Below, piece after piece: positions 4,566 through 63,535 of a stretch of 64,000 nt of DNA (position 1 is its first letter; each line of letters opens with the position of its first letter). The notes below the pieces were generated by a model. That model had not been told where the DNA came from, made no database searches, and worked only from the letters and a program-made list of their open reading frames with translations. The DNA comes from a virus (Duplodnaviria > Heunggongvirae > Uroviricota > Caudoviricetes). The position numbers were made by a program, and so were the translations under genes. The stretch spans positions 8,953 through 72,952 of the IMG/VR virus record IMGVR_UViG_3300026097_000012. One strand, written 5' to 3'.

Positions 4566-5035
4566 AACTAAAAGACTATATTTACCCAAATAGAGTGTAT
4601 AAGTCACTCAAACTTGCATTAAAAGAAAAAGTATATGCAGCAAGATATGCTAGCATTTTAAATGATTTAGAGCGAGAAGAAAAACTTAAAAGAATTGGAT
4701 TTAGAAAAGATGGAAATAAATTATTTTTCGGAGTTAATTTAAATCCAGAATTATTAATGTATACTGAGGATTCTAAAGAATCAGTTGAATTAAGATTCGT
4801 ATCAGATGCTACTAAAAAATATACTGATTTTTTACAAAACGAAGGAATCCTAGATTCAATCAAAGCGGATTACGAAAGAGTATTCACAGAAGATTTTTAT
4901 GGATATATTGTACAGATATCATATGACTATAGAAACTACTTACCTAAGAAATTTAAATATGATATTGGGTATTTTATTGGACTATCGGCAATTGTTATCG
5001 GAGGCATCCTAATCACATTATTAAGTATATTTTAA
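4562..5035 (+). CDS. hypothetical protein with C-terminal transmembrane helix
   Basis: ORF; hydrophobic C-terminus [17 protein letters not shown]. Confidence 0.5.
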
Positions 5036-10677: not shown

Positions 10678-10916
10678 TGAATATAAAAGAAGAATACAAA
10701 AAAGAACTAAAAGCTATTGTTAATCGATATGCTGAAATTCATATTGAAATAAAAAAGTTAGAGGAAGAGATGTTAAAACTAGTCGATTCAAAAAACGACG
10801 TATCAACTGAACTCCTTAATTTAAGAGATACTGAGATATCCCTAATAAATAAAATAGAAGAGGATATAGGGGAAAAACTAACCCAGGAATTTCTTACTGA
10901 AATAGTAAACTCATAA
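10677..10916 (+). CDS. hypothetical coiled-coil protein (79 aa)
   Basis: ORF with heptad-like composition. Confidence 0.45.
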   Translation: MNIKEEYKKELKAIVNRYAEIHIEIKKLEEEMLKLVDSKNDVSTELLNLRDTEISLINKIEEDIGEKLTQEFLTEIVNS

Positions 10917-10918
10917 TT

Positions 10919-11701
10919 ATGTTAGAAAAATTAAAAAGGCTTCCACTAAATATTATATTAATGATAGTAATAGTAGTGCTTGTGTTATTATATTTAAAAC
11001 AATGTAATAGATCTTCTAATTTAGATTCAGATCTTAAAATTGCAAATATGAATAGTCAGGTTTTTAATGATAGTATAACTACGTATAGAGATAAAGCAGG
11101 AAATCTAACGTACGAGAAAGGCATCCTCGTTGCATCAGAGAAAGATTTAAAAGATCTTAATAAAGAACTATATAATGAAGTAAAGGAGCTCAAAGACAAT
11201 CCTAAAATAATAATCAAGGAAAGTATTGTTATAAAAGAGGTTCCATTCGAAGTCCCGACTTATATTAATGTATACCCAGATGGATCTACTGGACTTTCGT
11301 GGAGCAGAGATACTACTTATAACAATAGAAATTATCAAAAGTTAGAAGGAGAAACTAGATTTATATACGATTCTCTTGGAATACATAATCCATATACAAT
11401 GATAAATTCTAACGAAATTGGAATATCATTTATAACAGGAATCAAAGAGGGTAAAGATCATTATGAAATATTTATAAAATCTGATTATCCTGGATTTACA
11501 GTTACTGATATTCAAGGATCTATATTAGACAAAAAGATGATTCAATCAAATGAAAGCGCAGTTGTATTTGGTCCATCTATTGGATATGGAGCAATACTTA
11601 GTCCAAATGGAACAATTGGACACGGAGTCACAGTTGGGTTTAATGCTACTTATAATCTAAATAGACACTTCAAAAAGTTATTCAAAAAATATAATTTATA
11701 A
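10919..11701 (+). CDS. hypothetical protein with N-terminal TM anchor
   Basis: N-terminus LNIILMIVIVVLVLLYL. Confidence 0.5.
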   Translation: MLEKLKRLPLNIILMIVIVVLVLLYLKQCNRSSNLDSDLKIANMNSQVFNDSITTYRDKAGNLTYEKGILVASEKDLKDLNKELYNEVKELKDNPKIIIKESIVIKEVPFEVPTYINVYPDGSTGLSWSRDTTYNNRNYQKLEGETRFIYDSLGIHNPYTMINSNEIGISFITGIKEGKDHYEIFIKSDYPGFTVTDIQGSILDKKMIQSNESAVVFGPSIGYGAILSPNGTIGHGVTVGFNATYNLNRHFKKLFKKYNL

Positions 11702-11703
11702 GC

Positions 11704-13731
11704 ATGTCAGTACAAAGTAGATTCATAAGTTTATCATCATATTGTTTAGTTGAGTATATGTTTGAACCAATGGGTTCAACTAACTTTCTAAGTGATAATG
11801 TCATTCTATTAAAGAATGATAAATCAGGAGTATATCAAATATACAATGAAGATAGTTCACTGTCAAACACTAGAAACATAAGAGACATAACAGTAACACC
11901 CATTGGAAACAATAAGATGGTTTATCTAGATTCTGAAAAAGTCCCTAATTATATAGATTATGATAATGACATGACAGAGACCCTACTTACTGGTTATAAC
12001 GTAGTGTATGATAGAGTGAGATTTCACTTTGTATCTGGATTTGATTTTGAAGGATTTGAGGCACTTATACTAGCAGTAATGAATAAGCAAAATAATGGAG
12101 AAAATCATTTATTTGCAAATATTTTACTTGCTCCTGAAACTATTTCAGAATTATTAACATTTAATTCTAAACCTCTATTCTTATCAGATTCACAATTTGA
12201 TAGATACATTGACGTATTAGTTCCATCAATTAAGAATATAAATCAAGATTATGACGTTGCTCCTAATCCATCTATTACTTTTTCTGCAAATATTACTCCT
12301 ACTACTACTGGTGGACATAGTGCGTTTATAACAAATGCACCAATCACAGTAACCCTATCTGAATGTGCTAAACGTTCTAAACTAGCAACTAATGTAGGAA
12401 TAAAATATGATACATTTGAAATAACTGAAAACTATGATGCATCTGTTTCTCAAACAAATGAGTTTGATAATGTAGGAGCATCTGTGAATGAATCCTCTAA
12501 TGGAGATTTTATAGAATACTATTTAACATGGAATGGGGGATTCCCTGAAGAATTAATATCGATTTTAAATAAAAGAAACCCTAATGATGATTGGGTAATA
12601 ATTCATCAACTTAGTGTATTTGAACAGGTTGGAAGTTCCTTTCAAAACACATCTAGACAAATTATATTTCAAGAAGACAGTTATGATGAACCTTTAGTTT
12701 ATCGTCCAGTTTTAAAATTTGCCGGATCTGCAATTAGCATGTCAATTGATTTACTATCTAGATTAACAAATAGAAGAAACGGAGAACAGATTATTAGAGA
12801 AGCTTCCTATACTTTAATATCTCCTAAGAAATATGGAAGAAAACTTAATGTTATTCCGTTAAGTGATGAACCACAATCGCAAAAAGTATATAATAAGATA
12901 ATTAAAAAGGATTTTGAATCAACTAACTTATTCATTGAGCCTTCATTTGCTCCAGGATTTAATACTGAGATCCCAGTGATAAATGAACCGGTTACTACAA
13001 CTGAATATATTCCAGTATTTTTTAACAATAATAACATCTCTATTTCAAATAATAACGGGATGCTAAAAACAAGGGACATAGCGGATGAAATTATATTTGG
13101 ACCCGGAGCTCTACGCTTCGTACTGTCTCCGTTTGATAATGTAATTAAGTTAAAAATGTTTAATATAATTAATAAGAAGCCTGTTCCGTTAGATCTTAAT
13201 TTAACAGCCGCTTCATATAAAATGACATTTGAAACACAAGAAGGTAAAATACAAGTTCAAAATGATAATAGCGATAAGACAGAAAACTTATCAAACGGAG
13301 AAATATCATTTAAGATATCTAAAAAGGATAGTACTGTGATATTAAAGTCTTCAAATCAAACTGTGTATATTACATCAGTTTCACAAGAAGGAACGGAAAC
13401 ATTAATGTACACGGGAGAATGGAGAAAGCCAACCCAACAAGACGAAGTAGATAGAGCTATTAAAGAAGCAAAAGAAGCATATGCTGAGATTGAAAATAGA
13501 GAATCTAAAATAACAGAACTAGAACGCAAAATAGAACAGCTTACATCAAGGGAAGAGAAATTTAAATTTTCAATTAATAAAAATACACTAATTAAAAAGA
13601 AAGCAGTAGCGCCAACTGTTAATAGATTTGGAATGAAAAGTCCTAAGAAAATTAGAACTGATGTTTCCAATGCGGGTAGGAAGTCAAAATCATTAGTCGA
13701 TTTATCTAAATTGACTAAAAATAGTAACTGA
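11704..13731 (+). CDS. hypothetical large protein (675 aa), possibly structural
   Basis: Long ORF with a C-terminal coiled coil; no motif recognised. Confidence 0.55.
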   Translation: MSVQSRFISLSSYCLVEYMFEPMGSTNFLSDNVILLKNDKSGVYQIYNEDSSLSNTRNIRDITVTPIGNNKMVYLDSEKVPNYIDYDNDMTETLLTGYNVVYDRVRFHFVSGFDFEGFEALILAVMNKQNNGENHLFANILLAPETISELLTFNSKPLFLSDSQFDRYIDVLVPSIKNINQDYDVAPNPSITFSANITPTTTGGHSAFITNAPITVTLSECAKRSKLATNVGIKYDTFEITENYDASVSQTNEFDNVGASVNESSNGDFIEYYLTWNGGFPEELISILNKRNPNDDWVIIHQLSVFEQVGSSFQNTSRQIIFQEDSYDEPLVYRPVLKFAGSAISMSIDLLSRLTNRRNGEQIIREASYTLISPKKYGRKLNVIPLSDEPQSQKVYNKIIKKDFESTNLFIEPSFAPGFNTEIPVINEPVTTTEYIPVFFNNNNISISNNNGMLKTRDIADEIIFGPGALRFVLSPFDNVIKLKMFNIINKKPVPLDLNLTAASYKMTFETQEGKIQVQNDNSDKTENLSNGEISFKISKKDSTVILKSSNQTVYITSVSQEGTETLMYTGEWRKPTQQDEVDRAIKEAKEAYAEIENRESKITELERKIEQLTSREEKFKFSINKNTLIKKKAVAPTVNRFGMKSPKKIRTDVSNAGRKSKSLVDLSKLTKNSN

Positions 13732-26626: not shown

Positions 26627-28117
26627 ATGAATACTAAATTAAATTCATTTGACGATTGGTTAACTAAGAAAGTAGAAGAAGATGCAATTTCTGCTGATCT
26701 TACTAATGCTGGTAGTACATTTGCAGATGTATTATCTAATAACTCAAATGTAAAGGAAAAACCAACAGGCTCTAATAGAGGACCAGAGGTAGATAGATAT
26801 GTTAAAACAGTAGGACTTGATCCAGAGGGAAAATATCCTTGGTGCATGGCATTTATTTACACAATGTTTGACGATTTCACTAACAAAATGAGAATCCCTA
26901 ATCCACTTATTAAAACTGCGGGTGTATTAGACCATTGGAAAAAAGCAGACGATGATTTAAAAATAGGAATCGACTCTATTAGAAGTAATCCTAATCAAAT
27001 GAAACCAGGTCAAATATTTATTCAAGATCATGGTAAAGGAAAAGGACATGCTGGTATAGTTGTTTCAGTTAATGCTAAAGCTAGAACGTTTACAACAATA
27101 GAAGGAAATGGAATTGAAAAAGATACTAAAGAAAGAGAAGGTGATAAAGTAGTTAGAAATACTAGAGAAATGAGCCAATCTAACTTAGTAGGAGTAATTG
27201 ATTACTTTAAAGGAAATAGAACAGAGGAGTTTGAACAATCAATAAGTAAACAGATCACTGGAACCGCTTCTACTTATGCAGAAGATACGACAAATGGAGG
27301 ATATCCAGAAGTTTCTAAATTTGATACGCAAACGACTAAAAAACCTAGAAAATATTATAAAGTATACGATAAAGCAAATAGACGATTTCTAACTGCTAAA
27401 TATAAAGGCGATTCATTTAAGGTATATAATAGAAGACGTGTTAATGTAGGAGAAGTATTCAAACAAGGGGACAGAATCCTTATGAATGATAAAGATATTA
27501 CTGATAATCCAGTCGGAAAAGTATTTTCAAAGTTATTTAAGTATGCAGAAGCAAATAAAGAAATTCCTAGATCAAAAGGAAAGGATTTCGTAACTATTGA
27601 CAATACAGATAAAGTAAATGTTAAACCTGGAACTAAGCTAAGTCCTTCTGAATTTAAAAATAAATTCGGTCCCGCAATGATAGAGGCAACAAAGGGAACT
27701 CCACTTTTACCATCTGTTAAATTAGCACAAGCTGCTCTTGAAACAGGATGGGGTAAACATGTAATTGGAGATGCTAATAATATGTTTGGAATAAAGGCAA
27801 AAGGTGCTCCAAATGAATATTGGAACGGAGAGTCAGTTACCGCTGGAACTACTGAATATTATGGTGGCAAAAAAGGATCGTATAATTTAGGATTTAGAAA
27901 GTATAATAGCCTAGAAGATAGTATTAAAGACCACTCTAGGTTATTAATGTCACTTCCTAGGTATAAAGAAGTTAGGTCGGCTACTACACCAGAAGATCAA
28001 GCACGTGCATTAAAATCAGGTGGATATGCAACCAGTCCAACTTACGATGATAAACTAATATCAATTATAAATAAGTATGACTTCAAGAGCCTTGATTCAC
28101 AGGCCAATAACGCATAA
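26627..28117 (+). CDS. endolysin / peptidoglycan hydrolase: N-terminal CHAP-like peptidase plus C-terminal glucosaminidase (PF01832-like)
   Basis: Cys in YPWCMAFIY and His in GHAGIV (CHAP); AQAALETGWGKH...NNMFGIK (mannosyl-glycoprotein endo-beta-N-acetylglucosaminidase). Confidence 0.8.
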   Translation: MNTKLNSFDDWLTKKVEEDAISADLTNAGSTFADVLSNNSNVKEKPTGSNRGPEVDRYVKTVGLDPEGKYPWCMAFIYTMFDDFTNKMRIPNPLIKTAGVLDHWKKADDDLKIGIDSIRSNPNQMKPGQIFIQDHGKGKGHAGIVVSVNAKARTFTTIEGNGIEKDTKEREGDKVVRNTREMSQSNLVGVIDYFKGNRTEEFEQSISKQITGTASTYAEDTTNGGYPEVSKFDTQTTKKPRKYYKVYDKANRRFLTAKYKGDSFKVYNRRRVNVGEVFKQGDRILMNDKDITDNPVGKVFSKLFKYAEANKEIPRSKGKDFVTIDNTDKVNVKPGTKLSPSEFKNKFGPAMIEATKGTPLLPSVKLAQAALETGWGKHVIGDANNMFGIKAKGAPNEYWNGESVTAGTTEYYGGKKGSYNLGFRKYNSLEDSIKDHSRLLMSLPRYKEVRSATTPEDQARALKSGGYATSPTYDDKLISIINKYDFKSLDSQANNA

Positions 28118-32859: not shown

Positions 32860-34293
32860 ATGACAAATATCAAATCTATACTCGACGAAATTGCAAATGA
32901 ATCAGGATCAAATGCAAAAATGGATATCCTTAAAAGTTATTCAGACAATGACCTATTAAAAAGAGTTCTTTATATGGCAAAAAGTCCAAGACTTAAATAT
33001 TATATTAAGCAACTTCCCGAATATACTCCACTACGCGGAACATCAATTACATTACTCGAATCATGTTTAGATCAGTTGATGGAGCAATTTGCAACACGAA
33101 TTGCAACAGGAAATGAAGCTAAGGCAAAACTAGGTATAATATTGAAGAGTTTGCATCCGAACGATGCATATGTCATCGAAAGAATTATTGAAAAAGACCT
33201 AAAGATTGGAATGGGAACTTCCAATATTAATAAAGTATTTCCTAAATTAATCGAAGAGACTCCTTATATGGGAGCAAAATCATTTAGTGAAAATCTTGCA
33301 AAGGAGATATTTAATCCTAAAACTAAAGGGTACAAGCTTAAATCTAAAATTGGATATAGTCAGATTAAGATGGATGGAAGATATTGTAATGCCATTATTG
33401 AAGATGGAGAAGCATACTTAGAATCTAGATCTGGAGAAACAACCCTACTCACTAACTCTAGACTTGAGCGTGAGTTATCTCAATTTGATGATTGTGTATT
33501 AAACGGAGAGCTAACTATCCCAGGATATGATAGAAATACTGCCAATGGGATTGTAAATTCTGTGATTGGTATTACAACAAAACTTCGTGATGTCGAAGAT
33601 GTAACTGATGAAAAAGATCATCTATTTGAAAGATACAATATTACTTACGAAGAATTTTTAGATAAAATTGTTTATACAGTATGGGATAGAATCGAATTAG
33701 AAGATTATGAAGCAAAGAAATCACAAATTGCATATAACGATCGACTTGGGCGCTTAATGAAAGAATTAGTTGCAAATCAAGATAATGATATACAATGTGT
33801 AGAATTAGTTGAGATGAAATTAGTTACGTCATATACAGAAGCTATGGAACACTTTGTGGATGCACTAAATAGAGGATTAGAAGGAACTATTCTTAAGTCT
33901 ATTGATGGCACTTGGAAGGACGGAAAGCCCAATTGGCAAATCAAGATGAAACTAGAAATAGACATCGATATGAGAATCATAGGATTTAATTATGGCACGG
34001 CTGGGACTAAAAATGAAAATGTAATATCCTCTTTAACAGTTGAGTCTTCTTGTGGAAAGGTAAGAACTAAACCAACTGGAATAAAGGAAAAAGATATGAA
34101 GTTTATAACTGAAAATCAAGATTTTTTAATGGATAAGATCATCGAAATGAAATGCTGTGGATTATCTCATGATAGAGATGGAAACTATTCTACTCTACAT
34201 CCTGTGTTTAAGTCCATTAGAGATGACAAGGACGAAGCAGATTCATTTGAAACAATCCAAGAAATTGAAAATATGGCAAAATCTTTGTCATAA
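32860..34293 (+). CDS. ATP-dependent DNA ligase
   Basis: Motif I KMDGRY (KxDG), length 477 aa, phage ligase-like layout. Confidence 0.8.
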   Translation: MTNIKSILDEIANESGSNAKMDILKSYSDNDLLKRVLYMAKSPRLKYYIKQLPEYTPLRGTSITLLESCLDQLMEQFATRIATGNEAKAKLGIILKSLHPNDAYVIERIIEKDLKIGMGTSNINKVFPKLIEETPYMGAKSFSENLAKEIFNPKTKGYKLKSKIGYSQIKMDGRYCNAIIEDGEAYLESRSGETTLLTNSRLERELSQFDDCVLNGELTIPGYDRNTANGIVNSVIGITTKLRDVEDVTDEKDHLFERYNITYEEFLDKIVYTVWDRIELEDYEAKKSQIAYNDRLGRLMKELVANQDNDIQCVELVEMKLVTSYTEAMEHFVDALNRGLEGTILKSIDGTWKDGKPNWQIKMKLEIDIDMRIIGFNYGTAGTKNENVISSLTVESSCGKVRTKPTGIKEKDMKFITENQDFLMDKIIEMKCCGLSHDRDGNYSTLHPVFKSIRDDKDEADSFETIQEIENMAKSLS

Positions 34294-48108: not shown

Positions 48109-48342
48109 TATTGTCTAATCCATGTGATTGTACGCTGCCCGAGCGGAAGTGATCACGCTAACCCATACCGCAATTTGGGATCCCTAAGAGTAGAAGACGG
48201 ATGAGGGGATATAGGACAACATTTAAAAGGCTTAAGAGAAACTTCCTCCTAAACATAAACTATGCGGGAGTCCTTCGGGATATCCCCCGCAACCACAAAA
48301 ATAGTTTCTCTAATTTCCTTTTATTTTTATATGGTCCATTCA

Positions 48343-48410
48343 GGTTTGAGTAGTCGGTCTCTAAAACCGATAGCCTTGGGTTCGAATCCCATATGGACTA
48401 CGAAACTTTA
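48343..48410 (+). tRNA. candidate amber-suppressor tRNA, anticodon CTA (reads UAG); amino-acid identity unknown
   Basis: Acceptor ggtccat/atggact, perfect anticodon stem tcggt/accga with loop ctCTAaa, T-arm ttggg ttcgaat cccat. The D-arm is short or degenerate (total 68 nt), which lowers confidence. Confidence 0.5.
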
Positions 48411-48432
48411 TTAAATAATAAAGTATAATAGA

Positions 48433-48446
48433 ATAAATAATAAAAA
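48433..48446 (+). promoter_or_regulatory. phage promoter-like motif ATAAATAATAAAAA
   Basis: Exact 14-mer 8 nt upstream of ATG 48455 (PTH2-like gene). Confidence 0.5.
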
Positions 48447-48454
48447 CAACAATT

Positions 48455-48814
48455 ATGAACAGAATCGAAGAATTCACTTAGGTACAACCTAAAAACAAAC
48501 TTGTAGTCATTACAAGAAATGATATTCCAGATGGATATCAATTAGTTCAATCAAATCACGCGGTAGCAGACTTTGCTTACGAACACCCGCAAAAGTTCAA
48601 GGAATGGAAGGACTCTTCCAATTACATCATCTCATTACAGATTCCTAACGAACAGCAGTTAATTAAACTTTACGAAAAATTATCTGATCAAGGAGCAATT
48701 GCCACTTTGTTTAGAGAACCTGACATCGATGACGAAGCAACATCATTTGCTTTCTTCGGTACAGATGACTTGCGTAGAAAAGTTTCAAATCTAAAATTAT
48801 CACTAAAAAAATAA
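48455..48814 (+). CDS. PTH2-like peptidyl-tRNA hydrolase with an in-frame TAG after codon 8 (48479..48481)
   Basis: ATG 8 nt after promoter motif 48433..48446. Translation is MNRIEEFT-TAG-VQPKNKLVVITRNDIPDGYQLVQSNHAVADFAYEHP...EWKD...ISLQIPNEQQLIKLYEKL...FREPDID, matching PTH2 (LVVRTDL...AAQxxHAAV). Confidence 0.5.
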
Positions 48815-48930
48815 AGAACTATGAAAGATACATAGGTACGTCAAAGAGGTCCATAATGTAAAATACAATTTACAAAACAATAGGAATTGTAAACCTTATT
48901 TTACAAAACAAAAAAATAAAATTTAATATT

Positions 48931-49311
48931 ATGGAAACTCAAGAATTCAAACAATACACATTAAGCGAAGCGTACGGAGCTTTAAAACAAAACGCAGAAA
49001 AATTTGATTGGGAAATTACAGGTGATTTACCAGAAGAACCAAAGGACTTTTATTCTCAAAATCAAAGAAAGAGATATAACAAAGCTATCAACAGACTGGC
49101 TAAGAAGCCAACTAGGAGATCTGCAAATCACTTATTCTATATCATTTCTAAGATCACAGGTGAAAATAAAATTCAAGTTAATCTTGGTACTAAAGAACGT
49201 GAAATTCAATCAAAACGTAAAGCCTGGTTGAAATTGAGAGACGAGGCAGATAAAGCACTAGCTGCTTACAAAGAAGAAAAAGGAAACTTTTATAAAAATA
49301 TTTTGAAATAA
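48931..49311 (+). CDS. hypothetical basic protein (126 aa)
   Basis: ORF only. Confidence 0.5.
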   Translation: METQEFKQYTLSEAYGALKQNAEKFDWEITGDLPEEPKDFYSQNQRKRYNKAINRLAKKPTRRSANHLFYIISKITGENKIQVNLGTKEREIQSKRKAWLKLRDEADKALAAYKEEKGNFYKNILK

Positions 49312-49345
49312 TCAAAACTTTTGTTGTATATTTGAATATAATATT
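49296..49345 (+). promoter_or_regulatory. Bacteroidetes-type promoter candidate (TTTG ... TATATTTG)
   Basis: TTTG at 49302..49305, TATATTTG at 49327..49334; followed by a ~190-nt ORF-poor transcript ending at terminator 49489..49527. Confidence 0.4.
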
Positions 49346-49488
49346 ACAACAGATTAATAAATAACTAAAATGAAAACACTTTTAAACATATCAAGGCTGA
49401 GCTCGACGAGTTTATGTACGTCAATAAGACGTGACAGACCAGGCTATGTGTTTATAGAAAGTTAACATTTTTACTTTATAAACCTTTT

Positions 49489-49527
49489 TTAAAGCCTGAT
49501 CGATTCATTTCAATCAGGCTTTTTTGT
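49489..49527 (+). terminator. rho-independent terminator
   Basis: agcctgat ... atcaggct + T-run. Confidence 0.8.
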
Positions 49528-49554
49528 TCATTGACATCTTGGAATACTAATTAC

Positions 49555-49646
49555 GGAGGAATCAGCCGAAAGATTCTGGGTAGCGGCAACTGTCTTGAAA
49601 ACAGTCTGATGTAAAAGTCGTGGGAGTTCGAATCTCCCTTCCTCCG
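49555..49646 (+). tRNA. tRNA-Ser(TGA), long variable arm
   Basis: Perfect acceptor ggaggaa/ttcctcc; loop ctTGAaa. Confidence 0.8.
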
Positions 49647-49688
49647 CTAAAACTATTAAGACATGAAAGATAGTTGAAATGTCAATAT

Positions 49689-49762
49689 GCCTCCTTAGCT
49701 CAGTTGGCCAGAGCAGCTCACTTGTAATGAGCAGGTCGTCAGTTCGAATCTGACAGGAGGCT
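49689..49762 (+). tRNA. tRNA-Thr(TGT)
   Basis: Perfect acceptor gcctcct/aggaggc; loop ctTGTaa. Confidence 0.85.
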
Positions 49763-49765
49763 CAA

Positions 49766-49855
49766 GGATTAATAAGACGAATCACGCGCATGATTATGTC
49801 GAGACCACAAGGATAGTGGAGCGCAACTCGAGGGGTTCGAATCCCCCTATTAATC
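49766..49855 (+). pseudogene. tRNA-like element with a good acceptor/T-arm but aberrant middle
   Basis: gattaat ... agggg ttcgaat cccct attaatc; the internal 50 nt do not form D/anticodon arms. Confidence 0.3.
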
Positions 49856-49862
49856 CCTAACT

Positions 49863-49936
49863 GGCGGTGTGGTCGAGTGGTTAGGCACTAGTCTGCAAAA
49901 CTAGGTACATCAGTTCAAATCTGATCACCGCCTCCA
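49863..49936 (+). tRNA. tRNA-Cys(GCA), CCA encoded
   Basis: Loop ctGCAaa. Confidence 0.8.
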
Positions 49937-49939
49937 AAT

Positions 49940-50013
49940 GGCCCGTTAGCTCAGCTGGATAGAGCAACTGCCTTCTAAGCAGTAGGTCCCAGGTTCGAAT
50001 CCTGGACGGGTCA
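49940..50013 (+). tRNA. tRNA-Arg(TCT)
   Basis: Loop ctTCTaa. Confidence 0.8.
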
Positions 50014-50192
50014 CAAGGGTAAAGGAGAAAAAGCGTATAATGGTAGACATAGAGAGATGTCGCGCAAGGGTACCCACTAAGGACAAGCAGATATTCTTAA
50101 TTGTAGTATCATCAGTCTCAGCTCTCTAATGGTGAGTGAAGCAATATTGCGAGATTCCTGATAAAACCATTACCTCCTTTACTTTTAACTAC

Positions 50193-50267
50193 GCTCCAGT
50201 GGTGAAGTTGGCAAAGCACGTAGAACTTAAAATTCTATTATCATGGGTTCGAGTCCCATCTGGAGTA
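50193..50267 (+). tRNA. tRNA-Leu(TAA), type I (short variable arm)
   Basis: Loop ctTAAaa; D-loop similar to the Leu(TAG) paralog. Confidence 0.6.
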
Positions 50268-50308
50268 CTATGACGGATTATAGTAGAAGTTCCTTCTAAT
50301 TTCCTTCT

Positions 50309-50390
50309 AAGAACGTGGTCGCGGGTTCGAGTCCCGCCTCCTCCACAACATTAATATTTAATGGGGGAGTAGCTCAGCTGGTAGAGCACG
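50309..50390 (+). ncRNA. permuted tRNA-like module B: T-arm + acceptor hairpin + D-arm
   Basis: tggtc gcggg ttcgagt cccgc, ctcctcc, a, 17-nt loop, gggggag, ta, gctcagctggtagagc; substitutions are compensatory relative to module A. Confidence 0.55.
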
Positions 50391-50419
50391 ATAATACTTC
50401 TATAAATTACCGTCAATTT

Positions 50420-50496
50420 GCCCACGTGCGGAAACGGCAAAGCCGGCTACACTTAGGATGTAGTGATTGGGGGTTCGATTCCCTCCGTGGGTACCA
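50420..50496 (+). tRNA. tRNA-Leu(TAG), type I, CCA encoded
   Basis: Acceptor gcccacg/cgtgggt; loop ctTAGga. Confidence 0.65.
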
Positions 50497-50514
50497 ATAT
50501 TAAAAAAAAGAGTT

Positions 50515-50775
50515 ATGAAACATTTAACTAAGGAAGAATTAGAACCTGGAGCGTATTATACAGGTTGGTGTAGAAATACATACGTCGCAGAATGGGATGC
50601 TAAGAAAGAAGTATTCGTACATATCCGATATAAATTTGGACATATGATCGATACTCTTCCACATTTCGACGACGTGAAAGAAACAAGACAAGATGGATTT
50701 ATTCCATTTGAAAAAATTAACCATCCTAAATTAGACAAAGAAATTAGAGAATACGTCTATAAAATAGGATATTAA
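50515..50775 (+). CDS. hypothetical protein (86 aa); start moved to the internal ATG to avoid the tRNA
   Basis: Track ORF 50467..50775 overlaps tRNA-Leu. Confidence 0.45.
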   Translation: MKHLTKEELEPGAYYTGWCRNTYVAEWDAKKEVFVHIRYKFGHMIDTLPHFDDVKETRQDGFIPFEKINHPKLDKEIREYVYKIGY

Positions 50776-50788
50776 AAATTAAAAAACA

Positions 50789-51022
50789 ATGGAAGTAAAG
50801 AAACAAGCATGGGATAACTTTTTAAGCGCTGTTGATTTTGAATCTGACGAGAACAATTTCAAATATGATTTTAAAACCATGTCCAAGAAATACGGAAATG
50901 CATTCATTGTTTATTGCAAAGCAGCATGGCAAGCAAATGGCGGAGTTCAAACTGAAGATGAATTCTGTAAGATGAACGCTAATATGCCACGCGGATTTTT
51001 TGACAAAGTTATTAATAAGTAA
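50789..51022 (+). CDS. hypothetical protein (77 aa)
   Basis: ORF only. Confidence 0.45.
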   Translation: MEVKKQAWDNFLSAVDFESDENNFKYDFKTMSKKYGNAFIVYCKAAWQANGGVQTEDEFCKMNANMPRGFFDKVINK

Positions 51023-51125
51023 AACATTAAATTGAGGATTAGATTAGTTGGCTTCCTTCTATAGCTCGTAAGAGCACCAAACTGCTAATTTGATAAAATA
51101 GCAACTACGATTCCCTCTTTTAACC

Positions 51126-51199
51126 GGTCCTTTAGCTCAGTTGGTTAGAGCACTTCACTCATAATGAATAGGTCACTGGTTCGAGCCCAGTATGGACCA
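51126..51199 (+). tRNA. tRNA(CAT), fourth CAT-anticodon tRNA (Met or Ile2)
   Basis: Loop ctCATaa; acceptor ggtcctt/atggacc. Confidence 0.6.
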
Positions 51200-51246
51200 C
51201 TAGCAGATATGGTAATTCTCTTGCCGCAACTTGAAAACTAAAGAAA

Positions 51247-51334
51247 AAAGAGAAACGGAGGATTACTCAAATGGTAAAGAGGCTTGTTTGCTAAACAAGT
51301 AGGGTGTAAAAGCTACGGGAGTTCGAACCTCCCA
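51247..51334 (+). tRNA. tRNA-Ser(GCT), long variable arm, CCA encoded
   Basis: Perfect acceptor ggaggat/atcctcc; loop ttGCTaa. Confidence 0.85.
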
Positions 51335-51408
51335 TCCTCCGCCAAAATAAAATAGTATGAAAAGATTCAGAAAGGGTTCAGTGTTTAGGTTTAAAAAACC
51401 AAAACGCT

Positions 51409-51600
51409 ATGAGCAAAAACAGAAACAGAGCAAAACTGAACAAAGCACAAACTAGTAAAGAATACTTATCTATTCAATATGACATTAGCTATCCAATTTG
51501 CTGGGATGAAGGTATCTCATTTAAAGGTAGGTTAATGATATTCGAACAAAGAGAATGTAGAACGTGGAAGCATACTAGAAAAACACAATGGAAGGAGTAA
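51409..51600 (+). CDS. hypothetical protein (63 aa)
   Basis: ORF only. Confidence 0.4.
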   Translation: MSKNRNRAKLNKAQTSKEYLSIQYDISYPICWDEGISFKGRLMIFEQRECRTWKHTRKTQWKE

Positions 51601-51611
51601 TCCTTCCTTTT

Positions 51612-51685
51612 GGCCCATTAGCTCAGCTGGATAGAGCACTCGATTACGGATCGAGAGGTCCGGGGTTCGAATCCCTGATGGGTCT
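51612..51685 (+). tRNA. tRNA-Arg(ACG)
   Basis: Loop ttACGga. Confidence 0.8.
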
Positions 51686-51843
51686 CAATTAATTATAATC
51701 TTTCTAGTATATCCTCCTACTTTTAGGATATTAATTCCAGACGGAAGATCTCCAATGTATATGATTAGAGTGTACCTGTGATAGTGTAATATTTGACATC
51801 GACACTATTATAAGCATCGTAATTAATAGTTTAAATAATTTCA

Positions 51844-52488
51844 TTATTGGATTTCGTTTTTTAAATATGCGTAAATGTATTTGTGATATCTCTTAAGTAT
51901 TTTATCATCTACATTTTTTTCTATAGTATTATATAGTCGTATAGTGTTTAGGTTTCTCATTGCATCTTCTGCATTATCATATTTTCCACTCGATATTAAC
52001 ATATCTGCAATTGAATGTGAAAATGCCATGACTTCATCTTTATTTGAAAAATAAGATCCTTGGTTTTTTGGATCTTCAATAGGTGTTACTACATTGTCAG
52101 GTCGTCTACTATATTGTCCAATGTGAATTGCTTCATGTTTTAGCATATGAAAGATATGATCAATTGCCCTCTTGTCAATTCTAGGAATGGATATTACAAC
52201 TCGAGGTCCTCCTGTTACTGGATTAACCATTGCAAATAATCCAGCTTGTCTAGGAGGAGCAGTATGCTTTACTTCTTCTGGAAGTTCATCTAGAAACTCA
52301 TCGTATGTTACAATTTCAACCCCGTTATGATCTCCAATAGCTTTTACATCGTCAATTGATAAGCTCCCACGTTGAACGTCTATCATGTCTACAACATCGT
52401 CGTAGAACTCCTGTACGCCTTCTTGTTCCTTCCAGTCTATTATAGCCTCATTTAAGATATCCCATTTATTAAAACTAAGTGCTTTCAT
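51844..52488 (-). CDS. putative zinc metallopeptidase (HExxH)
   Basis: MLKHEAIHIGQ. Confidence 0.55.
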   Translation of the reverse strand: MKALSFNKWDILNEAIIDWKEQEGVQEFYDDVVDMIDVQRGSLSIDDVKAIGDHNGVEIVTYDEFLDELPEEVKHTAPPRQAGLFAMVNPVTGGPRVVISIPRIDKRAIDHIFHMLKHEAIHIGQYSRRPDNVVTPIEDPKNQGSYFSNKDEVMAFSHSIADMLISSGKYDNAEDAMRNLNTIRLYNTIEKNVDDKILKRYHKYIYAYLKNEIQ

Positions 52489-52541
52489 ACTTTATTATTT
52501 ATCAATTTAATTTACACTTTACATTTAGTATACTAAATAAT

Positions 52542-53225
52542 ATGAAAATAATTAGTAAACATAAAGACTATTATGACTGGGCAGTTTCAATCTATGGATT
52601 AGACGAGATAATGGTATATGATCGTAGAACTGAATATCTTGAAAAACCGGAAAAAGATCCAACTACTAGGCCATTAAATGGTCACAAAGTAGCTTCTCAT
52701 AAATTTTCAATATGTAATAGAATATATGTTGTATATCAATATAGAAATAAATTCTATCATACTGTTGACGATTTATTAGTACTCAATGAAATATTGAAAG
52801 TTGAGAAAGTAGATGATACATTTTTACGTACAAAATACAGCTGGAGAAACGAGAATAAAAAATTAAGAACAGTTGCTGAAGAGAAATACAAAAAGGAAAA
52901 TCACAAAAGTAAAGTAAATAAGGAAATAAGAGAGCCAGTTTTAATTCAAGCTGCTTATTCAAAGGGATCATTTCCATTTACGGCGCAACGAAAAGGAGCA
53001 ACGTTTTTTGATTCTAATAAAAAGATATCATCATATTGGAGAATTCCAGATTTATCTGCTTATGGATTTGCAAGCTGGTTCTCATCTGAGCAAATGTTTC
53101 AAGATGTATATGCATTCATTAGTTGGAAGAAAGATCATCCGGAAATCCCAAATAAACAAAGTGATACTGAAAAGCTTAAATCACATGGATTCGATGACAA
53201 AATTTCATTTAGACATAGAAAATAA
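52542..53225 (+). CDS. hypothetical protein; start taken at the internal ATG of track ORF 52479..53225
   Basis: Avoids overlap with the divergent minus-strand gene. Confidence 0.5.
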   Translation: MKIISKHKDYYDWAVSIYGLDEIMVYDRRTEYLEKPEKDPTTRPLNGHKVASHKFSICNRIYVVYQYRNKFYHTVDDLLVLNEILKVEKVDDTFLRTKYSWRNENKKLRTVAEEKYKKENHKSKVNKEIREPVLIQAAYSKGSFPFTAQRKGATFFDSNKKISSYWRIPDLSAYGFASWFSSEQMFQDVYAFISWKKDHPEIPNKQSDTEKLKSHGFDDKISFRHRK

Positions 53226-53257: not shown

Positions 53258-53911
53258 ATGAAAGCAGATAATATTTACCATAAAATTTTAAAGGATCCAA
53301 TACTTGCAATGGCGTTTAAACATGTTGTTGAAATTAACAAATCAAATTATGCACCATATCATCATTTTCATCACATGATTTGTGTTGCTAAATGGTCAAT
53401 GATTTTAGCTGAGTCTGAAGGAGTTGAAGAAGCAAGTGCAGATTGGTATGAATTAGTATTAGCTAGTATGTTCCATGACATCAATCATTCAATGGGTAAA
53501 TTACCAGATGGAGATAATGTAAAAGAGGCAATCGAGCAATATAGAAATTTCCATACTTCAAATATCTCATTTAGAAGTGATGTTCCAATTAACGGTAATC
53601 GTGTATTTAATATTATATCTGCGACTCAATTTCCATATGTTATAGATGATGCGGATTTAAATATTCAACAATCAATTATTAGAGATGCAGATCTCCTAGT
53701 TTCTCTAGAACCAGATTGGTTTCAAAACGCATTTCTAGGATTGATGAATGAAATGGGAGTAGGTGATATTGAAAAGATGATTGCTGGTCAAAAAGCATTT
53801 CACCTTGGAATTGAGATGAAAACTCAGACTGGAAAAGATTTATATACAGATCGATGGCCAAGTCAATGTATTAAAACAATAGAACTTTTAGAAGATCTAT
53901 ATAAAAACTAA
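53258..53911 (+). CDS. HD-domain phosphohydrolase
   Basis: HHFHHMICVA ... MFHDINH. Confidence 0.75.
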   Translation: MKADNIYHKILKDPILAMAFKHVVEINKSNYAPYHHFHHMICVAKWSMILAESEGVEEASADWYELVLASMFHDINHSMGKLPDGDNVKEAIEQYRNFHTSNISFRSDVPINGNRVFNIISATQFPYVIDDADLNIQQSIIRDADLLVSLEPDWFQNAFLGLMNEMGVGDIEKMIAGQKAFHLGIEMKTQTGKDLYTDRWPSQCIKTIELLEDLYKN

Positions 53912-54277: not shown

Positions 54278-54535
54278 ATGAACAGACGAAATATAGGATC
54301 AAAGTTCGAAGAGATAAATCGTGCAGAAACATTTGCTCAATTATCTCAGGCTATTTTAAACATAGCTGATAGAGATGGAAACATACAAGGACGAAACATT
54401 TTATTTAGTGCAAAAGAATTATCTCAACAATGTTTAGAATTAAGAGACGATGAGCATAAGAACTGGAATTTATTAACAAGGGAATATGGAATCCGACAAC
54501 AAGCCATTTATTTAGATTATTATAATTGCCCATGA
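54278..54535 (+). CDS. hypothetical protein (85 aa)
   Basis: ORF only. Confidence 0.45.
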   Translation: MNRRNIGSKFEEINRAETFAQLSQAILNIADRDGNIQGRNILFSAKELSQQCLELRDDEHKNWNLLTREYGIRQQAIYLDYYNCP

Positions 54536-55689
54536 CAATACAAGAATTAAGAGATCGTAATTTAATTATCTTTGAAGCAGTCGGAGGATCTCGTGCATAT
54601 GGAACAGATTTACCAACAAGTGATACTGACATTAGAGGAGTTTTTATGCTTCCACAGGACGATGTTCTTGGTAGTAAATATATTGAACAGGTAAACGATG
54701 ATAAAAGTGATATTGTCTTCTATGAGATTAGAAGATTCATCGAATTAATTTCTACTGCTAATCCAAATATATTAGAGTTATTAAATACTCCAGAAAAATG
54801 TATTATTTATAAGCATCCAGTATTTGATCAACTTCTCCAACATAAAAAAGCGTTTGTAACTAAACTTTGTAGAAATAGTTTTGGCGGATATGCATCTCAG
54901 CAAATTAAAAAAGCAAGAGGGATGAAGAAGAAAATTGTAAATCCAGTTGATAAGGAGAGAAAGTCTCCACTTGATTTTTGTTATGTTGTGGATCCTAAGG
55001 GAAAAGGAACTATTCCATTAAGAGAGGTTAGTACTGGTAAAAATTCAATGTTCGGATACGAATCTAAGCACTTTGGAGTTTCAGTAATTTCTCATGCCAG
55101 AGACCTATATTATTTATGGAAAAATGATAGACCTATCTATAAAGGAATAATCAATGAGGATCTTACTTCTAATGAACTTAGATTGAGTTCAATTCCAAAG
55201 GGTCAAAAGCCATTCGCAATAATATCATATAATAAAGATGGATATTCAGCATATTGTAAGGATTATAAAGAATACTGGGAATGGGTTGAAAATAGAAACC
55301 CAGATCGATATGAAACTAATCAAAAGCACGGCAAGGGATATGATTCTAAAAATCTGATGCATTGTCATCGATTATTAGATATGTCACTTGAAATCTTAAA
55401 CGGAGAAGGGATAATCGTTCGTAGACCAAACAGAGAAGAACTTTTAAAAATTAGAAGTGGTGAAAGGGATTATGATGAATTATTAGCAGATGCTGAGTCC
55501 AAGCTTAAAAAAATGGATGAACTTTTTATGAAGTCCAATCTTCCTAGTAAGGTTGACAGGGATTTTACAAATAGATTATTAATTAGTATGAGAAAGAAGT
55601 TCTATGAAGGAATTGGATGCGCTAATAAATACAGAAAAAAGGTAGATACTAATTCTGGAAATTGGCACGGAGATGTTGATGAATATTAA
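54526..55689 (+). CDS. Pol-beta-superfamily nucleotidyltransferase; possibly tRNA CCA-adding-like
   Basis: AVGGSRAYGTDLPTSDTDIRGVF (GG/GS ... DxD) resembles the class II CCA/poly(A) polymerase head motif. Confidence 0.6.
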   Translation: MPMTIQELRDRNLIIFEAVGGSRAYGTDLPTSDTDIRGVFMLPQDDVLGSKYIEQVNDDKSDIVFYEIRRFIELISTANPNILELLNTPEKCIIYKHPVFDQLLQHKKAFVTKLCRNSFGGYASQQIKKARGMKKKIVNPVDKERKSPLDFCYVVDPKGKGTIPLREVSTGKNSMFGYESKHFGVSVISHARDLYYLWKNDRPIYKGIINEDLTSNELRLSSIPKGQKPFAIISYNKDGYSAYCKDYKEYWEWVENRNPDRYETNQKHGKGYDSKNLMHCHRLLDMSLEILNGEGIIVRRPNREELLKIRSGERDYDELLADAESKLKKMDELFMKSNLPSKVDRDFTNRLLISMRKKFYEGIGCANKYRKKVDTNSGNWHGDVDEY

Positions 55690-58615: not shown

Positions 58616-59103
58616 GAATAACAAAAGATGCAATATATTTTTGGGGAGGATCATTTAGTCAATGGTTTAAGTCTCCATTTGAAGTAAACGGAGTAGAATA
58701 CGTAACTGCTGAGCAGTATATGATGGCTATGAAAGCTAAGACATTCGAAGGAAACGAAGATATTCTTGAAAAAATTATGTCAACTGGAAATGCTAAAAAA
58801 CAAAAAGCACTAGGTCGACAGGTTAGAAATTTTGATACTGACGAATGGAATGAAGTTAGTATGGGACATGTAGTAACTGCAAACATTGCAAAGTTTTCTC
58901 AAAGTGAAAGTTTACTTGCTGAATTAATTGAGAGTGGAGACAGGGAATTAGTAGAAGCAAGTCCACATGATACTATATGGGGAATAGGACTTCATTGGAA
59001 CGACGACGCTGTATTAGACAAAGAAAAATGGAGAGGAGAAAACAAACTAGGTAAAGCAATAATGACTGCTAGAGAAACCATATTACAACAAATAGAAGTA
59101 TGA
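58612..59103 (+). CDS. NADAR (YbiA-like, DUF1768) domain protein
   Basis: IYFWGGSFSQWFKSPFEVNGVEYVTAEQYMMAMKAKTF. Confidence 0.75.
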   Translation: MRITKDAIYFWGGSFSQWFKSPFEVNGVEYVTAEQYMMAMKAKTFEGNEDILEKIMSTGNAKKQKALGRQVRNFDTDEWNEVSMGHVVTANIAKFSQSESLLAELIESGDRELVEASPHDTIWGIGLHWNDDAVLDKEKWRGENKLGKAIMTARETILQQIEV

Positions 59104-59315
59104 AAACAGTAATTACATTTTTAATAACATTCATATTCATAAGCTTATTTAATTCTTGGATAACAACTTATGCTATTGAGGGAACCATATTCATTGACGA
59201 ATTAATAGACATTAGATCTATATTTATTAGAATTATTATTTCTTTGCTTTTAACTAGTATGATTATTAGAATTATAAATAAAAAATCATCTACGACTTCA
59301 AATACTCGATCTTAG
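59100..59315 (+). CDS. small membrane protein
   Basis: Two hydrophobic stretches. Confidence 0.35.
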   Translation: MKTVITFLITFIFISLFNSWITTYAIEGTIFIDELIDIRSIFIRIIISLLLTSMIIRIINKKSSTTSNTRS

Positions 59316-59499
59316 TAGGATCTAGTTGGACTAATCCGTTAGGTTCATATGGAATTTTACTAATTCCCATTGTAGCATCTAGTATTTTATCAACTGGGTG
59401 CTTTTCTTGTTGATTAGGGTTAGGTCCATATTGAACCCCATCATTATATGGATTAGTACCTTTGAATACTTTACCTGACATTATACCTGGTTTCTTCAT
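59290..59499 (-). CDS. hypothetical protein (69 aa)
   Basis: Minus-strand promoter motif at 59509..59522, 9 nt from the start. Confidence 0.45.
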   Translation of the reverse strand: MKKPGIMSGKVFKGTNPYNDGVQYGPNPNQQEKHPVDKILDATMGISKIPYEPNGLVQLDPTKIEYLKS

Positions 59500-62848: not shown

Positions 62849-63040
62849 ATGAAAGAAGAAAGAAAGTTACGAAAGTTGGAAGCAGGACCTATTTTAGGAA
62901 AATGGTACGTAAAGGGAACCATTTTTAAAGTCGTATCAGAAGACGGAATGAGAGGATTAGATGTAGAAGATCCAGACGGAAAGATCATTGGAGAAATCCG
63001 TATGATTATGAATCAGTTTGAATGGGTAGATGAAGAATAG
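62849..63040 (+). CDS. hypothetical protein (TAG stop)
   Basis: ORF only. Confidence 0.4.
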   Translation: MKEERKLRKLEAGPILGKWYVKGTIFKVVSEDGMRGLDVEDPDGKIIGEIRMIMNQFEWVDEE

Positions 63041-63310: not shown

Positions 63311-63535
63311 ATGATAATAAGGGTTAAAGGTTTATCAGTTCGTAGCATAATAGATAGGACCCTCAATCGGGATACTGATATAGATTTACGTTATGAAGTA
63401 GGGGTTAAGTTTACTGCAGAAGAATTGCAAAGCATGCATTGGATGCAAGGTCAGCGCGTAGAAGAAGTCATAGACCTCATTGGGGAAGGCATTAAGTCTG
63501 AGATGAGGCGCATACACGAAAAGAACAAAAGGTAG
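63311..63535 (+). CDS. hypothetical protein (TAG stop)
   Basis: ORF only. Confidence 0.4.
   Translation: MIIRVKGLSVRSIIDRTLNRDTDIDLRYEVGVKFTAEELQSMHWMQGQRVEEVIDLIGEGIKSEMRRIHEKNKR

Follow-up and report, generated by a model that had tools for sequence, protein, structure and literature searches.

Why would a phage whose genes are otherwise read in the standard code keep a transfer RNA (tRNA) for the amber codon, and what would that tRNA read? The question is raised by a 64,000-nucleotide (nt) stretch of a caudoviricete virus record (IMG/VR IMGVR_UViG_3300026097_000012, positions 8,953 to 72,952), hereafter the window, in which a tRNA gene with anticodon CTA, tRNA(CTA), lies just upstream of an open reading frame (ORF) for a protein resembling the Pth2 peptidyl-tRNA hydrolases (PTH2-like) that is interrupted at codon 9 by an in-frame TAG. 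From comparisons of the locus with its relatives, we put at roughly three in four the probability that it is a translational gate dependent on the suppressor tRNA, through which synthesis of the PTH2-fold protein is tied to suppressor activity. In such a gate, the phage tRNA(CUA) would decode the UAG at codon 9 of the adjacent messenger RNA (mRNA). Without the suppressor, release factor 1 (RF1) would stop translation after an eight-residue peptide and the PTH2 domain, having no start codon, would not be made, whereas with it the full 119-residue protein would be produced, so that the amount of enzyme would track the ratio of suppressor-tRNA to RF1 activity in the infected cell. We infer that the phage tRNA(CUA) is charged and decodes the UAG at 48479.

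An earlier reading of the window, made from the letters alone (the sequence-only reading), had reported an ORF that begins MNRIEEFT, meets a TAG and runs on in frame to a TAA, with no alternative start past the TAG. Its coordinates for these elements are exact (Table 1), and the first in-frame ATG, GTG or TTG past the TAG is a TTG at 48707, deep inside the domain. Two of its distances needed correction, as the leader ATG is 55 nt and not 45 nt after the tRNA, and the tRNA begins at 48333 and not at 48343, where the locus had been made to start. Among the close relatives, the leaders vary in length and sequence (MKK, MKKDLTTI, MKKDLTTL, MKDVTEGYVIPPAST), and behind these variable leaders conservation begins with the TAG and continues into the sequence past it. 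In all pairs among the window and its relatives L001, L003, L004, L005 and L013, the ORF past the TAG shows a ratio of nonsynonymous to synonymous divergence (dN/dS) of 0.05-0.21 (Nei-Gojobori). That the TAG is a sequencing error or a recent nonsense mutation in a pseudogene, an outcome which the sequence-only reading had itself considered, is scarcely credible, because the TAG is found in every independent assembly of every close relative and the ORF is under purifying selection. The spacer that separates tRNA and ATG recurs almost unchanged in L003 and L004 and with recognisable similarity in L005; it contains a -10-like element and is a possible promoter for the PTH2-like mRNA. What had been described as a perfect copy of a promoter motif does not hold up as a repeat in the window, since counts are at the level of chance (a single occurrence of the 26-nt spacer element, and 21 of AAAGTATAAT with one mismatch where 21.9 are expected); a scan for the sigma-70 consensus did not pick up the spacer element. 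The part of the claim that stands is the conservation of the element in the relatives.

The domain that the sequence-only reading had placed after the TAG, a PTH2-type one, was recovered by profile and structure searches. The match to Pfam PF01981 scores 26.3 bits against a cut-off of 23 (residues 15-88 aligned to profile positions 2-81 of 115) and that to phrog_1866 reaches 2e-17, and both alignments begin just past the TAG. An AlphaFold2 model (18 sequences) has a predicted local distance difference test (pLDDT) value of 91.6 and a predicted template modelling (pTM) score of 0.84; in Foldseek, its 13 best PDB matches are all Pth2-family structures (including 2zv3, 1wn2, 3erj, 1q7s/Bit1, 1rlk and 1xty), with probability 1.0 and template modelling (TM) scores of 0.7-0.76. 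A sequence profile matches 2zv3 at E 4.6e-6, and the Q..HA motif is kept, with Q23 and H26 invariant. As modelled, the product is a protein with the Pth2 peptidyl-tRNA hydrolase fold. Enzymes of the Pth2 peptidyl-tRNA hydrolase family cleave the ester bond at the tRNA 3' end.

How far the interruption extends through the protein family was estimated from five sources of loci: contigs encoding database homologues (L001-L012); 37 IMG/VR loci retrieved with an alignment-derived pattern and confirmed by tblastn (a single-protein query of IMG/VR gave no match, and the alignment-based query succeeded); a single match among 185,579 bacterial and archaeal species genomes, on a contig of 7.8 kb assigned to a Saccharibacteria bin; viral loci sampled for the presence of a tRNA(CTA); and GenBank phages. 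By tblastn, the family occurs in 253 GenBank phage records. Of these, 207 are cluster C mycobacteriophages, and the others include Lak phages, huge uncultured phages and many Proteobacteria-infecting jumbo phages. Every homologue from the first three sources has a short ATG leader, a TAG and then the conserved KLVxITRxD domain, and among relatives at 38-92% protein identity the in-frame TAG is always at the same place. Clustering at 90% identity reduced 79 occurrences to 60 clusters, 46 of which are strictly gated, by which we mean a TAG, an ATG no more than 25 codons ahead of it (the longest leader observed has 15 sense codons) and no ATG, GTG or TTG before the domain. Three clusters have a TAG leader with a possible alternative start, and the 11 with an ordinary start are all distant (E > 1e-18); at E < 1e-26 to the family profile, 42 of 42 clusters are gated. 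The two-sense-codon leader is commonest (27 of 49 gated clusters), and the base after the TAG is A in 34, G in 14 and T in one, that is, a purine in 48 of the 49. A purine after the amber codon is the context that favours amber suppression in Escherichia coli genetics. When the relatives' flanks (±10 kb) were scanned for an ATG leader followed by a stop and a long start-less ORF, TAG yielded almost only PTH2-like and HD-like genes, and the same scan with TAA or TGA gave mostly off-frame or low-complexity ORFs and no recurring family.

As a separate observation on the leader region, the PTH2-like 5' end of some loci (L081 9239-10030; L076, L078, L086 9017-9989) contains inserted ORFs of endonuclease type, with repeated H-G-x-F...G-C-P-x-C motifs, which stand just after 'M-x-TAG-I-K' and duplicate the leader. 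This looks like homing-endonuclease invasion of the gate region.

The gated genes keep company with the tRNA that could read them. Of the 49 gated clusters, 34 have a tRNA(CTA) in the same locus; most copies found in the ±10 kb IMG/VR loci precede the gene by 170-2,100 nt and share its strand, and L008-L010 carry two in tandem. The linked tRNA(CTA) genes are diverse in sequence, but all are class I and most have A73 and the loop CUCUAAA. In the reverse direction, IMG/VR was sampled for a tRNA(CTA) pattern (anticodon loop and T-loop), with the same pattern bearing the Lys UUU anticodon loop as control. PTH2-like genes were present in 27 (23%) of 119 tRNA(CTA) loci (1.05 Mb, 4.3 tRNAs per locus) and in 2 (1.7%) of 120 tRNA-Lys(TTT) loci (1.07 Mb, 7.2 tRNAs per locus), which is a 13-fold enrichment (Fisher p = 1.8e-7); both PTH2-positive control loci also hold a tRNA(CTA). 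More distant PTH2-like genes beside tRNA(CTA) have ordinary ATG starts, and thus the link between enzyme and suppressor reaches past the gated subfamily. Programmed amber readthrough, as the sequence-only reading had proposed, is strongly supported by the conserved TAG with its variable leader, the purifying selection and this linkage across lineages.

A second gene appears to share the gate in many relatives. An HD-like protein of ~190 residues is encoded directly downstream of the PTH2-like gene or fused with it, and its gene is amber-interrupted in 33 of the 35 occurrences examined. In the metagenomic loci, 30 of 30 match rows of the hidden Markov model (HMM) are preceded by the gene's own or the fusion's M-x-TAG leader, and the same holds for LR745206 (a 635-kb phage) and Xanthomonas phage XacN1. 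The order is PTH2-HD in L050, L060, L066/67, L073, L076/78 and L086 and HD-PTH2 in XacN1 ORF364. Cronobacter phage GAP32 and Serratia phage BF have the HD-like TAG at codon 47, the gene being annotated as separate small ORFs, and in Acinetobacter phage ME3 and Salmonella phage Arash the HD-like gene has an ordinary start. The HD assignment is weak (PF01966 at E 4.5e-4; TIGR00277, HDIG, and TIGR02692, CCA tRNA nucleotidyltransferase, at ~1e-3), and the best PDB sequence matches, over the HDIGKP region, are to the Aquifex class II A-adding enzyme entries 3wfo-3wfs (E 0.013). No homologue of the HD-like protein was found in the window or in L005 by HMM search. An HD protein of the window (53258-53911) was considered as the partner and rejected (BLASTP E 0.05, no HMM match in the window).

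Is the tRNA gene of the window itself a plausible suppressor? Two structure-aware tools, Rfam and ARAGORN, accept it, which bears out the earlier call of a tRNA-like gene with anticodon CTA. The match to RF00005 scores 36.7 bits against a gathering score of 29 (E 1e-5 to 1e-4), and ARAGORN also reports anticodon cta, at 48325..48399 with a poorer acceptor stem than Rfam's. The acceptor stem GGTCCAT/ATGGACT (7 base pairs, bp, with a G1.U72 pair), the perfect 5-bp anticodon stem TCGGT/ACCGA, the 7-nt loop CTCTAAA with the anticodon at 48361-48363 and the T-loop TTCGAAT are all as previously described. The T-stem consists of four bp and a U.U at 49:65, at the stem base, the discriminator A73 is at 48400, and CCA is not encoded. 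In the Rfam alignment, 11 unaligned nt (AGGTTTGAGTA) take the place of the model's 15 D-arm positions, with the GG kept. An Rfam scan of 47500-48950 gave no other significant family beyond tRNA, and the minimum free energy fold of the 68-nt tRNA is a non-cloverleaf alternative with a weak z-score of -2.1, which speaks neither for function nor against it. This short-D-arm form is common to the window, L003 and L004, whereas L001, L005 and L050 have a canonical tRNA(CTA) of 76-77 nt with a full D-arm (54.7 bits in Rfam for the L005 copy). The acceptor and T-arms of the canonical tRNAs match the window's, with compensatory changes (GGTCGAT/ATCGATC versus GGTCCAT/ATGGACT), and the suppressor's anticodon arm at 48354-48370 (TCGGTCTCTAAAACCGA) is identical at 15 of 17 positions to that of the phage's tRNA-Trp at 41350-41366 (CCGGTCTCCAAAACCGA). 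A Trp-like anticodon arm together with acceptor and T-arms like those of the relatives' canonical suppressors suggests a rearranged or chimeric gene, perhaps a Su7-like suppressor derived from tRNA-Trp. No clear parent isoacceptor was found among the other tRNAs of the array (best identity 0.61-0.74), and the gene is not close to the phage's tRNA-Gln.

Several observations weigh against a working gate. The tRNA(CTA) of the window has the weakest Rfam score of the 25 tRNA matches in the array, its D-arm is shrunk to ~11 nt without a proper stem, U49.U65 is a mismatch in the T-stem, and we know of no functional bacterial or phage tRNA of such reduced shape. No tRNA(CTA) was found within ±10 kb in 20 of the 37 IMG/VR loci, nor among the 25 tRNAs within ±50 kb of the gated gene of LR745206. 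The codon after the TAG is ATT, ATA or ATC, which are rare starts in translation table 11, in 29 of the 49 gated clusters. Lastly, the profile alignment sets G-Y-Q opposite K-G-K and E-P-D opposite D-A-G of canonical Pth2, at positions which we take to be catalytic, and the gated subfamily has Tyr or another residue at the canonical Lys position; with these changes, hydrolase activity and substrate are putative.

The reduced shape of the tRNA could mean that it is a decaying relic, and that the gene is read by a suppressor elsewhere in the genome or is no longer expressed. Its low score and its defects fit this explanation, as do the canonical copies kept by L001, L005 and L050 and the fact that the window covers only 64 kb of the genome. 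We nevertheless regard it as unlikely. The short form occurs in three independent assemblies, and between the window and L004 it differs at 2 of 68 positions (97% identity), whereas the non-coding stretch upstream of the tRNA (47900-48332) is just 54% identical and synonymous divergence in the ORF is 0.15 (0.15-0.23 across the clade with the short-D-arm tRNA). The ORF is intact in the same clade, with dN/dS of 0.15-0.21, and ARAGORN found no second tRNA(CTA) in the window, which holds an array of 26 tRNAs. The contrast between a nearly unchanged tRNA and its diverged surroundings argues that the reduced-D-arm form is kept by selection, and we infer that the window's copy functions with its degenerate D-arm.

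The codons that follow the TAG, and the gated genomes that have no tRNA(CTA) in the sequence at hand, could instead be explained if the UAG were a true stop that ends a leader mini-ORF, with re-initiation or independent initiation at the next codon (AUU, AUA, AUC or GUN) and some other cause for the link with tRNA(CTA). In mycobacteriophage Bxz1, a GTG with a well-spaced Shine-Dalgarno sequence stands directly after ATG-TAG and is the annotated start of gp154 ('peptidyl tRNA hydrolase', L327 94756-95509), which we count as ungated. As an account of the family, this is distinctly improbable. GTA or GTT follows the TAG in 14 clusters (the window and 13 others) and AAC, AAT, ACT or AGC in a few more, and none of these is a start codon. 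Where a Shine-Dalgarno sequence is visible (AGGAG in Ralstonia phage RsoM2USA, GAGGA in Arash and in XacN1), its spacing fits the leader ATG and not the codon past the TAG. Re-initiation at the codon-47 TAG of the HD-like genes of GAP32 and BF would lose conserved sequence. The mini-ORF also leaves unexplained why TAG, to the exclusion of TAA and TGA, is the stop in every case, and why these genes are enriched 13-fold beside tRNA(CTA).

A broader explanation would be that TAG is reassigned to glutamine throughout the genome (genetic code 15), as in crAss-like and Lak phages; the sequence-only reading had drawn a parallel to TAG recoding in Bacteroidetes-infecting phages. The suppressor tRNA, the GC content of 33% and the rarity of TAG as a stop are compatible with it. 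As the sequence-only reading had said, TAG is rare, terminating 2-4 of ~76-88 window ORFs (59100-59315, 62849-63040, 63311-63535 and 63535/63640-63786). The terminase is nearest (~30-35% identity) to those of huge uncultured phages and large phages of Flavobacterium, Tenacibaculum, Sphingomonas and Prevotella (Lak), a distant relationship with Lak and other large Bacteroidota phages. Furthermore, the closest homologues in the public protein database (79-92% identity) show Q at the TAG column. Their contigs, however, are flagged as not translating to the stored protein, and the DNA has an in-frame TAG in each, so the Q is an artefact of the translation table; we therefore rejected it as a sign of a CAG-to-TAG mutation or of Gln insertion.

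The window as a whole makes such a reassignment very improbable. A census of ORFs that would be joined if TAG were sense left the PTH2-like gene as the sole real gene with an in-frame TAG in the 64 kb, the other candidates being off-frame or overlapping real genes; other genes split only by an in-frame TAG, for which the sequence-only reading had proposed a search, are thus absent from the window. The terminase, the endolysin-domain protein, the ligase and the nucleotidyltransferase are intact in code 11, late genes such as the terminase among them. Across the window and 37 related loci, ignoring TAG lengthens ORFs no more than ignoring TGA does, and this TAG ≤ TGA-control gain is the one informative part of an otherwise crude comparison of coding density between code 11 and readthrough of either stop. 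Moreover, the TAG lies in a non-conserved leader and not at a conserved Gln. With the standard code used otherwise and TAG avoided as a stop, collateral readthrough of phage genes by the suppressor would be small. A minor observation on TAG usage is that ORF 59100-59315 ends in a tandem TAG-TAG (59313-59318), with a further in-frame TAG at 59340; the tandem may be a safeguard against suppressor readthrough.

What would such a gate be for? Since the TAG stands in a variable leader, is nearly always followed by a purine and terminates translation so early that little is wasted, the sequences suggest that it acts as a gate rather than as a codon for a particular residue. The most likely role is a coherent feed-forward or dose-matching circuit, in which the UAG readthrough that creates aberrant tRNA-linked products or stalled ribosomes would also license the enzyme that handles them and, in many relatives, the HD-like partner. 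This is the most economical account because the enzyme and its partner resemble proteins that act on tRNA 3' ends and because the linkage to tRNA(CTA) persists in ungated relatives. We further suggest, tentatively and as a less likely extension, that the tRNA(CUA) and the gated PTH2-like gene, with or without the HD-like gene, make up a natural circuit, complete in itself, that controls suppressor activity or the state of tRNA 3' ends. Conceivably, the enzymes may act on the suppressor tRNA or on readthrough products, as a feedback homeostat or a commitment switch for partial code change; or they may serve anti-defence repair of acceptor ends damaged by host toxins (acetylation, pyrophosphorylation, nucleotide addition), keyed to working phage tRNAs. 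If such a circuit exists, standard-code phages would keep amber suppressor tRNAs mainly on its account, and it could be the seed of genome-wide TAG recoding.

The arrangement has partial parallels. The bacterial gene prfB, for release factor 2, is autoregulated by a +1 frameshift at an early in-frame UGA. There, as proposed here, an early in-frame stop in a translation-factor gene senses termination efficiency and competition in the ribosomal A-site sets expression; prfB, however, works by frameshifting and senses its own product, whereas the competitor here would be a dedicated tRNA gene next door. Closer in kind are the recoded phages (code 15 or code 4; crAss-like, Lak, Agate, Jade: 10.1101/2021.08.26.457843; PMC7886860; PMC9523058), in which a phage tRNA(CUA) likewise reads in-frame UAG within a standard-code host, GC is low, TAG stops are depleted, and the in-frame stop has been proposed as a post-transcriptional switch that depends on suppressor expression. 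In those phages the internal TAGs stand at conserved Gln positions in anything from tens to hundreds of genes, most of them for structure and lysis, and the whole genome is regarded as recoded. Our locus differs in that the code is standard, one gene (two in many relatives) is involved, the single TAG sits in a variable N-terminal leader, and unrelated phage lineages share the gate as a constant trait of one protein family. A hydrolase target is not mentioned in the preprint by Borges et al. (10.1101/2021.08.26.457843). Synthetic feed-forward or AND-gate circuits built with suppressor tRNAs (e.g., PMC7969014) also make expression conditional on the tRNA by means of an early amber codon, in a coherent feed-forward design; those are engineered, and the gate described here would be a natural, widespread counterpart.

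Orphan suppressors, i.e., tRNA(CUA) genes of the same kind in standard-code phages, have been described in XacN1 (PMC5852040), RsoM2USA (PMC8504454), GAP32, BF and ME3 ('Sup-tRNA'), and the same genomes carry a gated PTH2-like gene. The XacN1 authors could not identify the targets of the two tRNA(CUA) genes (PMC5852040), and the RsoM2USA authors named no specific target for the single one (PMC8504454); unlike these earlier accounts, ours identifies a specific, conserved target. PTH2 genes of jumbo phages, for which a role in peptidyl-tRNA recycling and ribosome rescue has been proposed (Iyer et al., 2021, PMC7824862), and Bxz1 gp154 belong to the same superfamily and to the same kind of large, tRNA-rich phages, but neither a link to suppressor tRNAs nor an amber interruption is reported in that study, and gp154 and ORF216 of phage RaK2 have ordinary starts. 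Phage suppressor tRNAs, stop-codon recoding as a regulatory device and jumbo-phage PTH2 genes are thus already known. Our literature search, in which absence is not proof, turned up neither an amber-gated PTH2-like or HD-like gene nor a specific association of PTH2-like genes with tRNA(CTA), nor any defined target that the orphan suppressors of jumbo phages with the standard code might read.

In cultured phages, the in-frame TAG has left the PTH2-like and HD-like genes missing, truncated or split in the records (Table 1), since a gene caller cannot start an ORF behind a two-codon leader and a stop. The XacN1 authors searched by extending annotated genes past amber stops (PMC5852040), which put a two-codon leader beyond their reach. 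In GAP32, the gated genes appear as GAP32_397, 398 and 398A, cut short or broken up into small 'hypothetical proteins'. The 40 kb of ME3 that were examined carry four annotated tRNAs, one of them with anticodon CTA. Among the ungated relatives, Bxz1 has a tRNA(CTA) 300 nt downstream of gp154 that is annotated only as 'tRNA-OTHER', and RaK2 ORF216 begins with an ordinary ATG. This exposes a blind spot in annotation (GAP32, Serratia BF, RsoM2USA, Arash, ME3, XacN1), and the entries for these genes in cultured jumbo phages need correcting. The gated family may explain the purpose of orphan suppressor tRNAs in large standard-code phages, which would thereby gain a concrete, conserved target. It would also present stop-codon suppression as a translational gate on a single gene, not a genome-wide change of code, and suggests an evolutionary intermediate toward recoded phage genomes. 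The link between suppressor tRNAs and PTH2-like and HD-like enzymes of tRNA 3' ends points to tRNA recycling or repair during infection. Cultured phage-host pairs exist for Cronobacter, Serratia, Ralstonia, Acinetobacter, Salmonella and Xanthomonas, so the gate is directly testable.

Table 1. Positions of the gated locus and of other features in the window, and of PTH2-like and HD-like genes in relatives and cultured phages.
Sequence	Feature	Position	Strand	Remarks
Window	tRNA with anticodon CTA (reads UAG)	48333..48400	+	Rfam RF00005, ARAGORN
Window	Spacer from tRNA to ATG	48404..48454	+	-10-like element AAAGTATAAT at 48420-48429
Window	Eight-codon leader MNRIEEFT	48455..48478	+	Starts at ATG 48455; direct reading
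Window	In-frame amber TAG, codon 9	48479..48481	+	Followed by G
Window	PTH2-fold ORF, 110 codons, VQPKNKLVVITRND...SLKK, and TAA	48482..48814	+	No start codon of its own; TAA at 48812-48814
Window	Terminator-like hairpin, ~240 nt upstream of tRNA(CTA)	48070..48094	+	Consensus scan only
Window	T4-type large terminase	1585-3558
Window	Endolysin-domain protein	26627-28117
Window	ATP-dependent DNA ligase	32860-34293
Window	Sigma-70-like factor	39198-40100
Window	Two HNH endonuclease genes	42401-42841 and 44653-45141		Inside tRNA array
Window	Nucleotidyltransferase	54532-55689
L071	HD-like gene	11226-11800
L055	HD-like gene	10335-10907
L008	HD-like gene	4431-5006
Relatives	HD-like fusions	L050, L060, L073 from 9983 onward
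XacN1 (L339)	HD-like fusion, ORF364	1245-2096
GAP32 (L329)	HD-like gene	4318-4881
Cronobacter GAP32	PTH2-like gene, leader MAQ-TAG			Truncated GAP32_397; 'Sup-tRNA' 3.1 kb downstream
Serratia BF	PTH2-like gene, leader MTH-TAG	286095-286418		tblastn match, unannotated; 'tRNA-Sup' 3.5 kb downstream
Ralstonia RsoM2USA	PTH2-like gene, leader ML-TAG	68877-69206		Unannotated; AGGAG spaced for leader ATG; one tRNA(CTA), per its paper
Acinetobacter ME3	PTH2-like gene, leader MT-TAG			ME3_195; 'anticodon CTA' tRNA ~440 nt upstream
Salmonella Arash	PTH2-like gene, leader ML-TAG			gp84c, a 50-residue 'peptidyl-tRNA hydrolase' fragment; GAGGA spaced for leader ATG
Xanthomonas XacN1	MK-TAG before HD-PTH2 fusion			ORF364 annotated from internal ATG; GAGGA spaced for leader ATG; two tRNA(CTA), per its paper

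The remainder of the window is AT-rich, with almost all genes on the + strand, and the region 47500-49400 gave no nucleotide-level match by blastn against 50,697 GenBank phage records. The tRNA array spans 41.2-51.7 kb (26 tRNA genes by ARAGORN; 25 matches above the Rfam RF00005 gathering threshold) and has other unusual members. An 86-nt tRNA-Tyr(gta) called by ARAGORN at 41709-41794 is not among the Rfam gathering-threshold matches in 40000-53000. Two tRNAs with Leu anticodons TAA and TAG (50193-50268 and 50420-50496) are only 76-77 nt long and have no long variable arm, which bacterial tRNA-Leu is expected to carry; they still score 61 and 54 bits in Rfam, and their homologues in L005 are 84-86 nt with the long arm. 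Together with the short-D-arm suppressor, these short tRNA-Leu genes suggest a lineage that is tolerant of trimmed tRNAs.

Directly upstream of the locus, the window encodes a 712-residue protein (45415-47553) that matches phrog_33734, a family of unknown function, at 5e-60 and contains a segment weakly similar to TerD; in L005, and apparently also in L004, its gene stands in conserved synteny with the tRNA(CTA)/PTH2 locus. Between this gene and the tRNA(CTA) lies a non-coding region of ~780 nt (window 47554-48330; L004 1-846; L005 9067-9790), in which patches are strongly conserved with L004 and L005 (e.g., 47745-47790, 47835-47900 and 48035-48070) and a terminator hairpin at 47559-47584 shows compensatory changes. 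In L005 the stretch 9601-9663 is a permuted tRNA-like element, with a match to Rfam YrlA (Y RNA-like) at 36.4 bits against a gathering score of 69 (E 4e-6); no YrlA match was found in the non-coding region of the window. The region may be a structured RNA, and the hairpin at 48070..48094 is a possible 5' boundary of the transcription unit.

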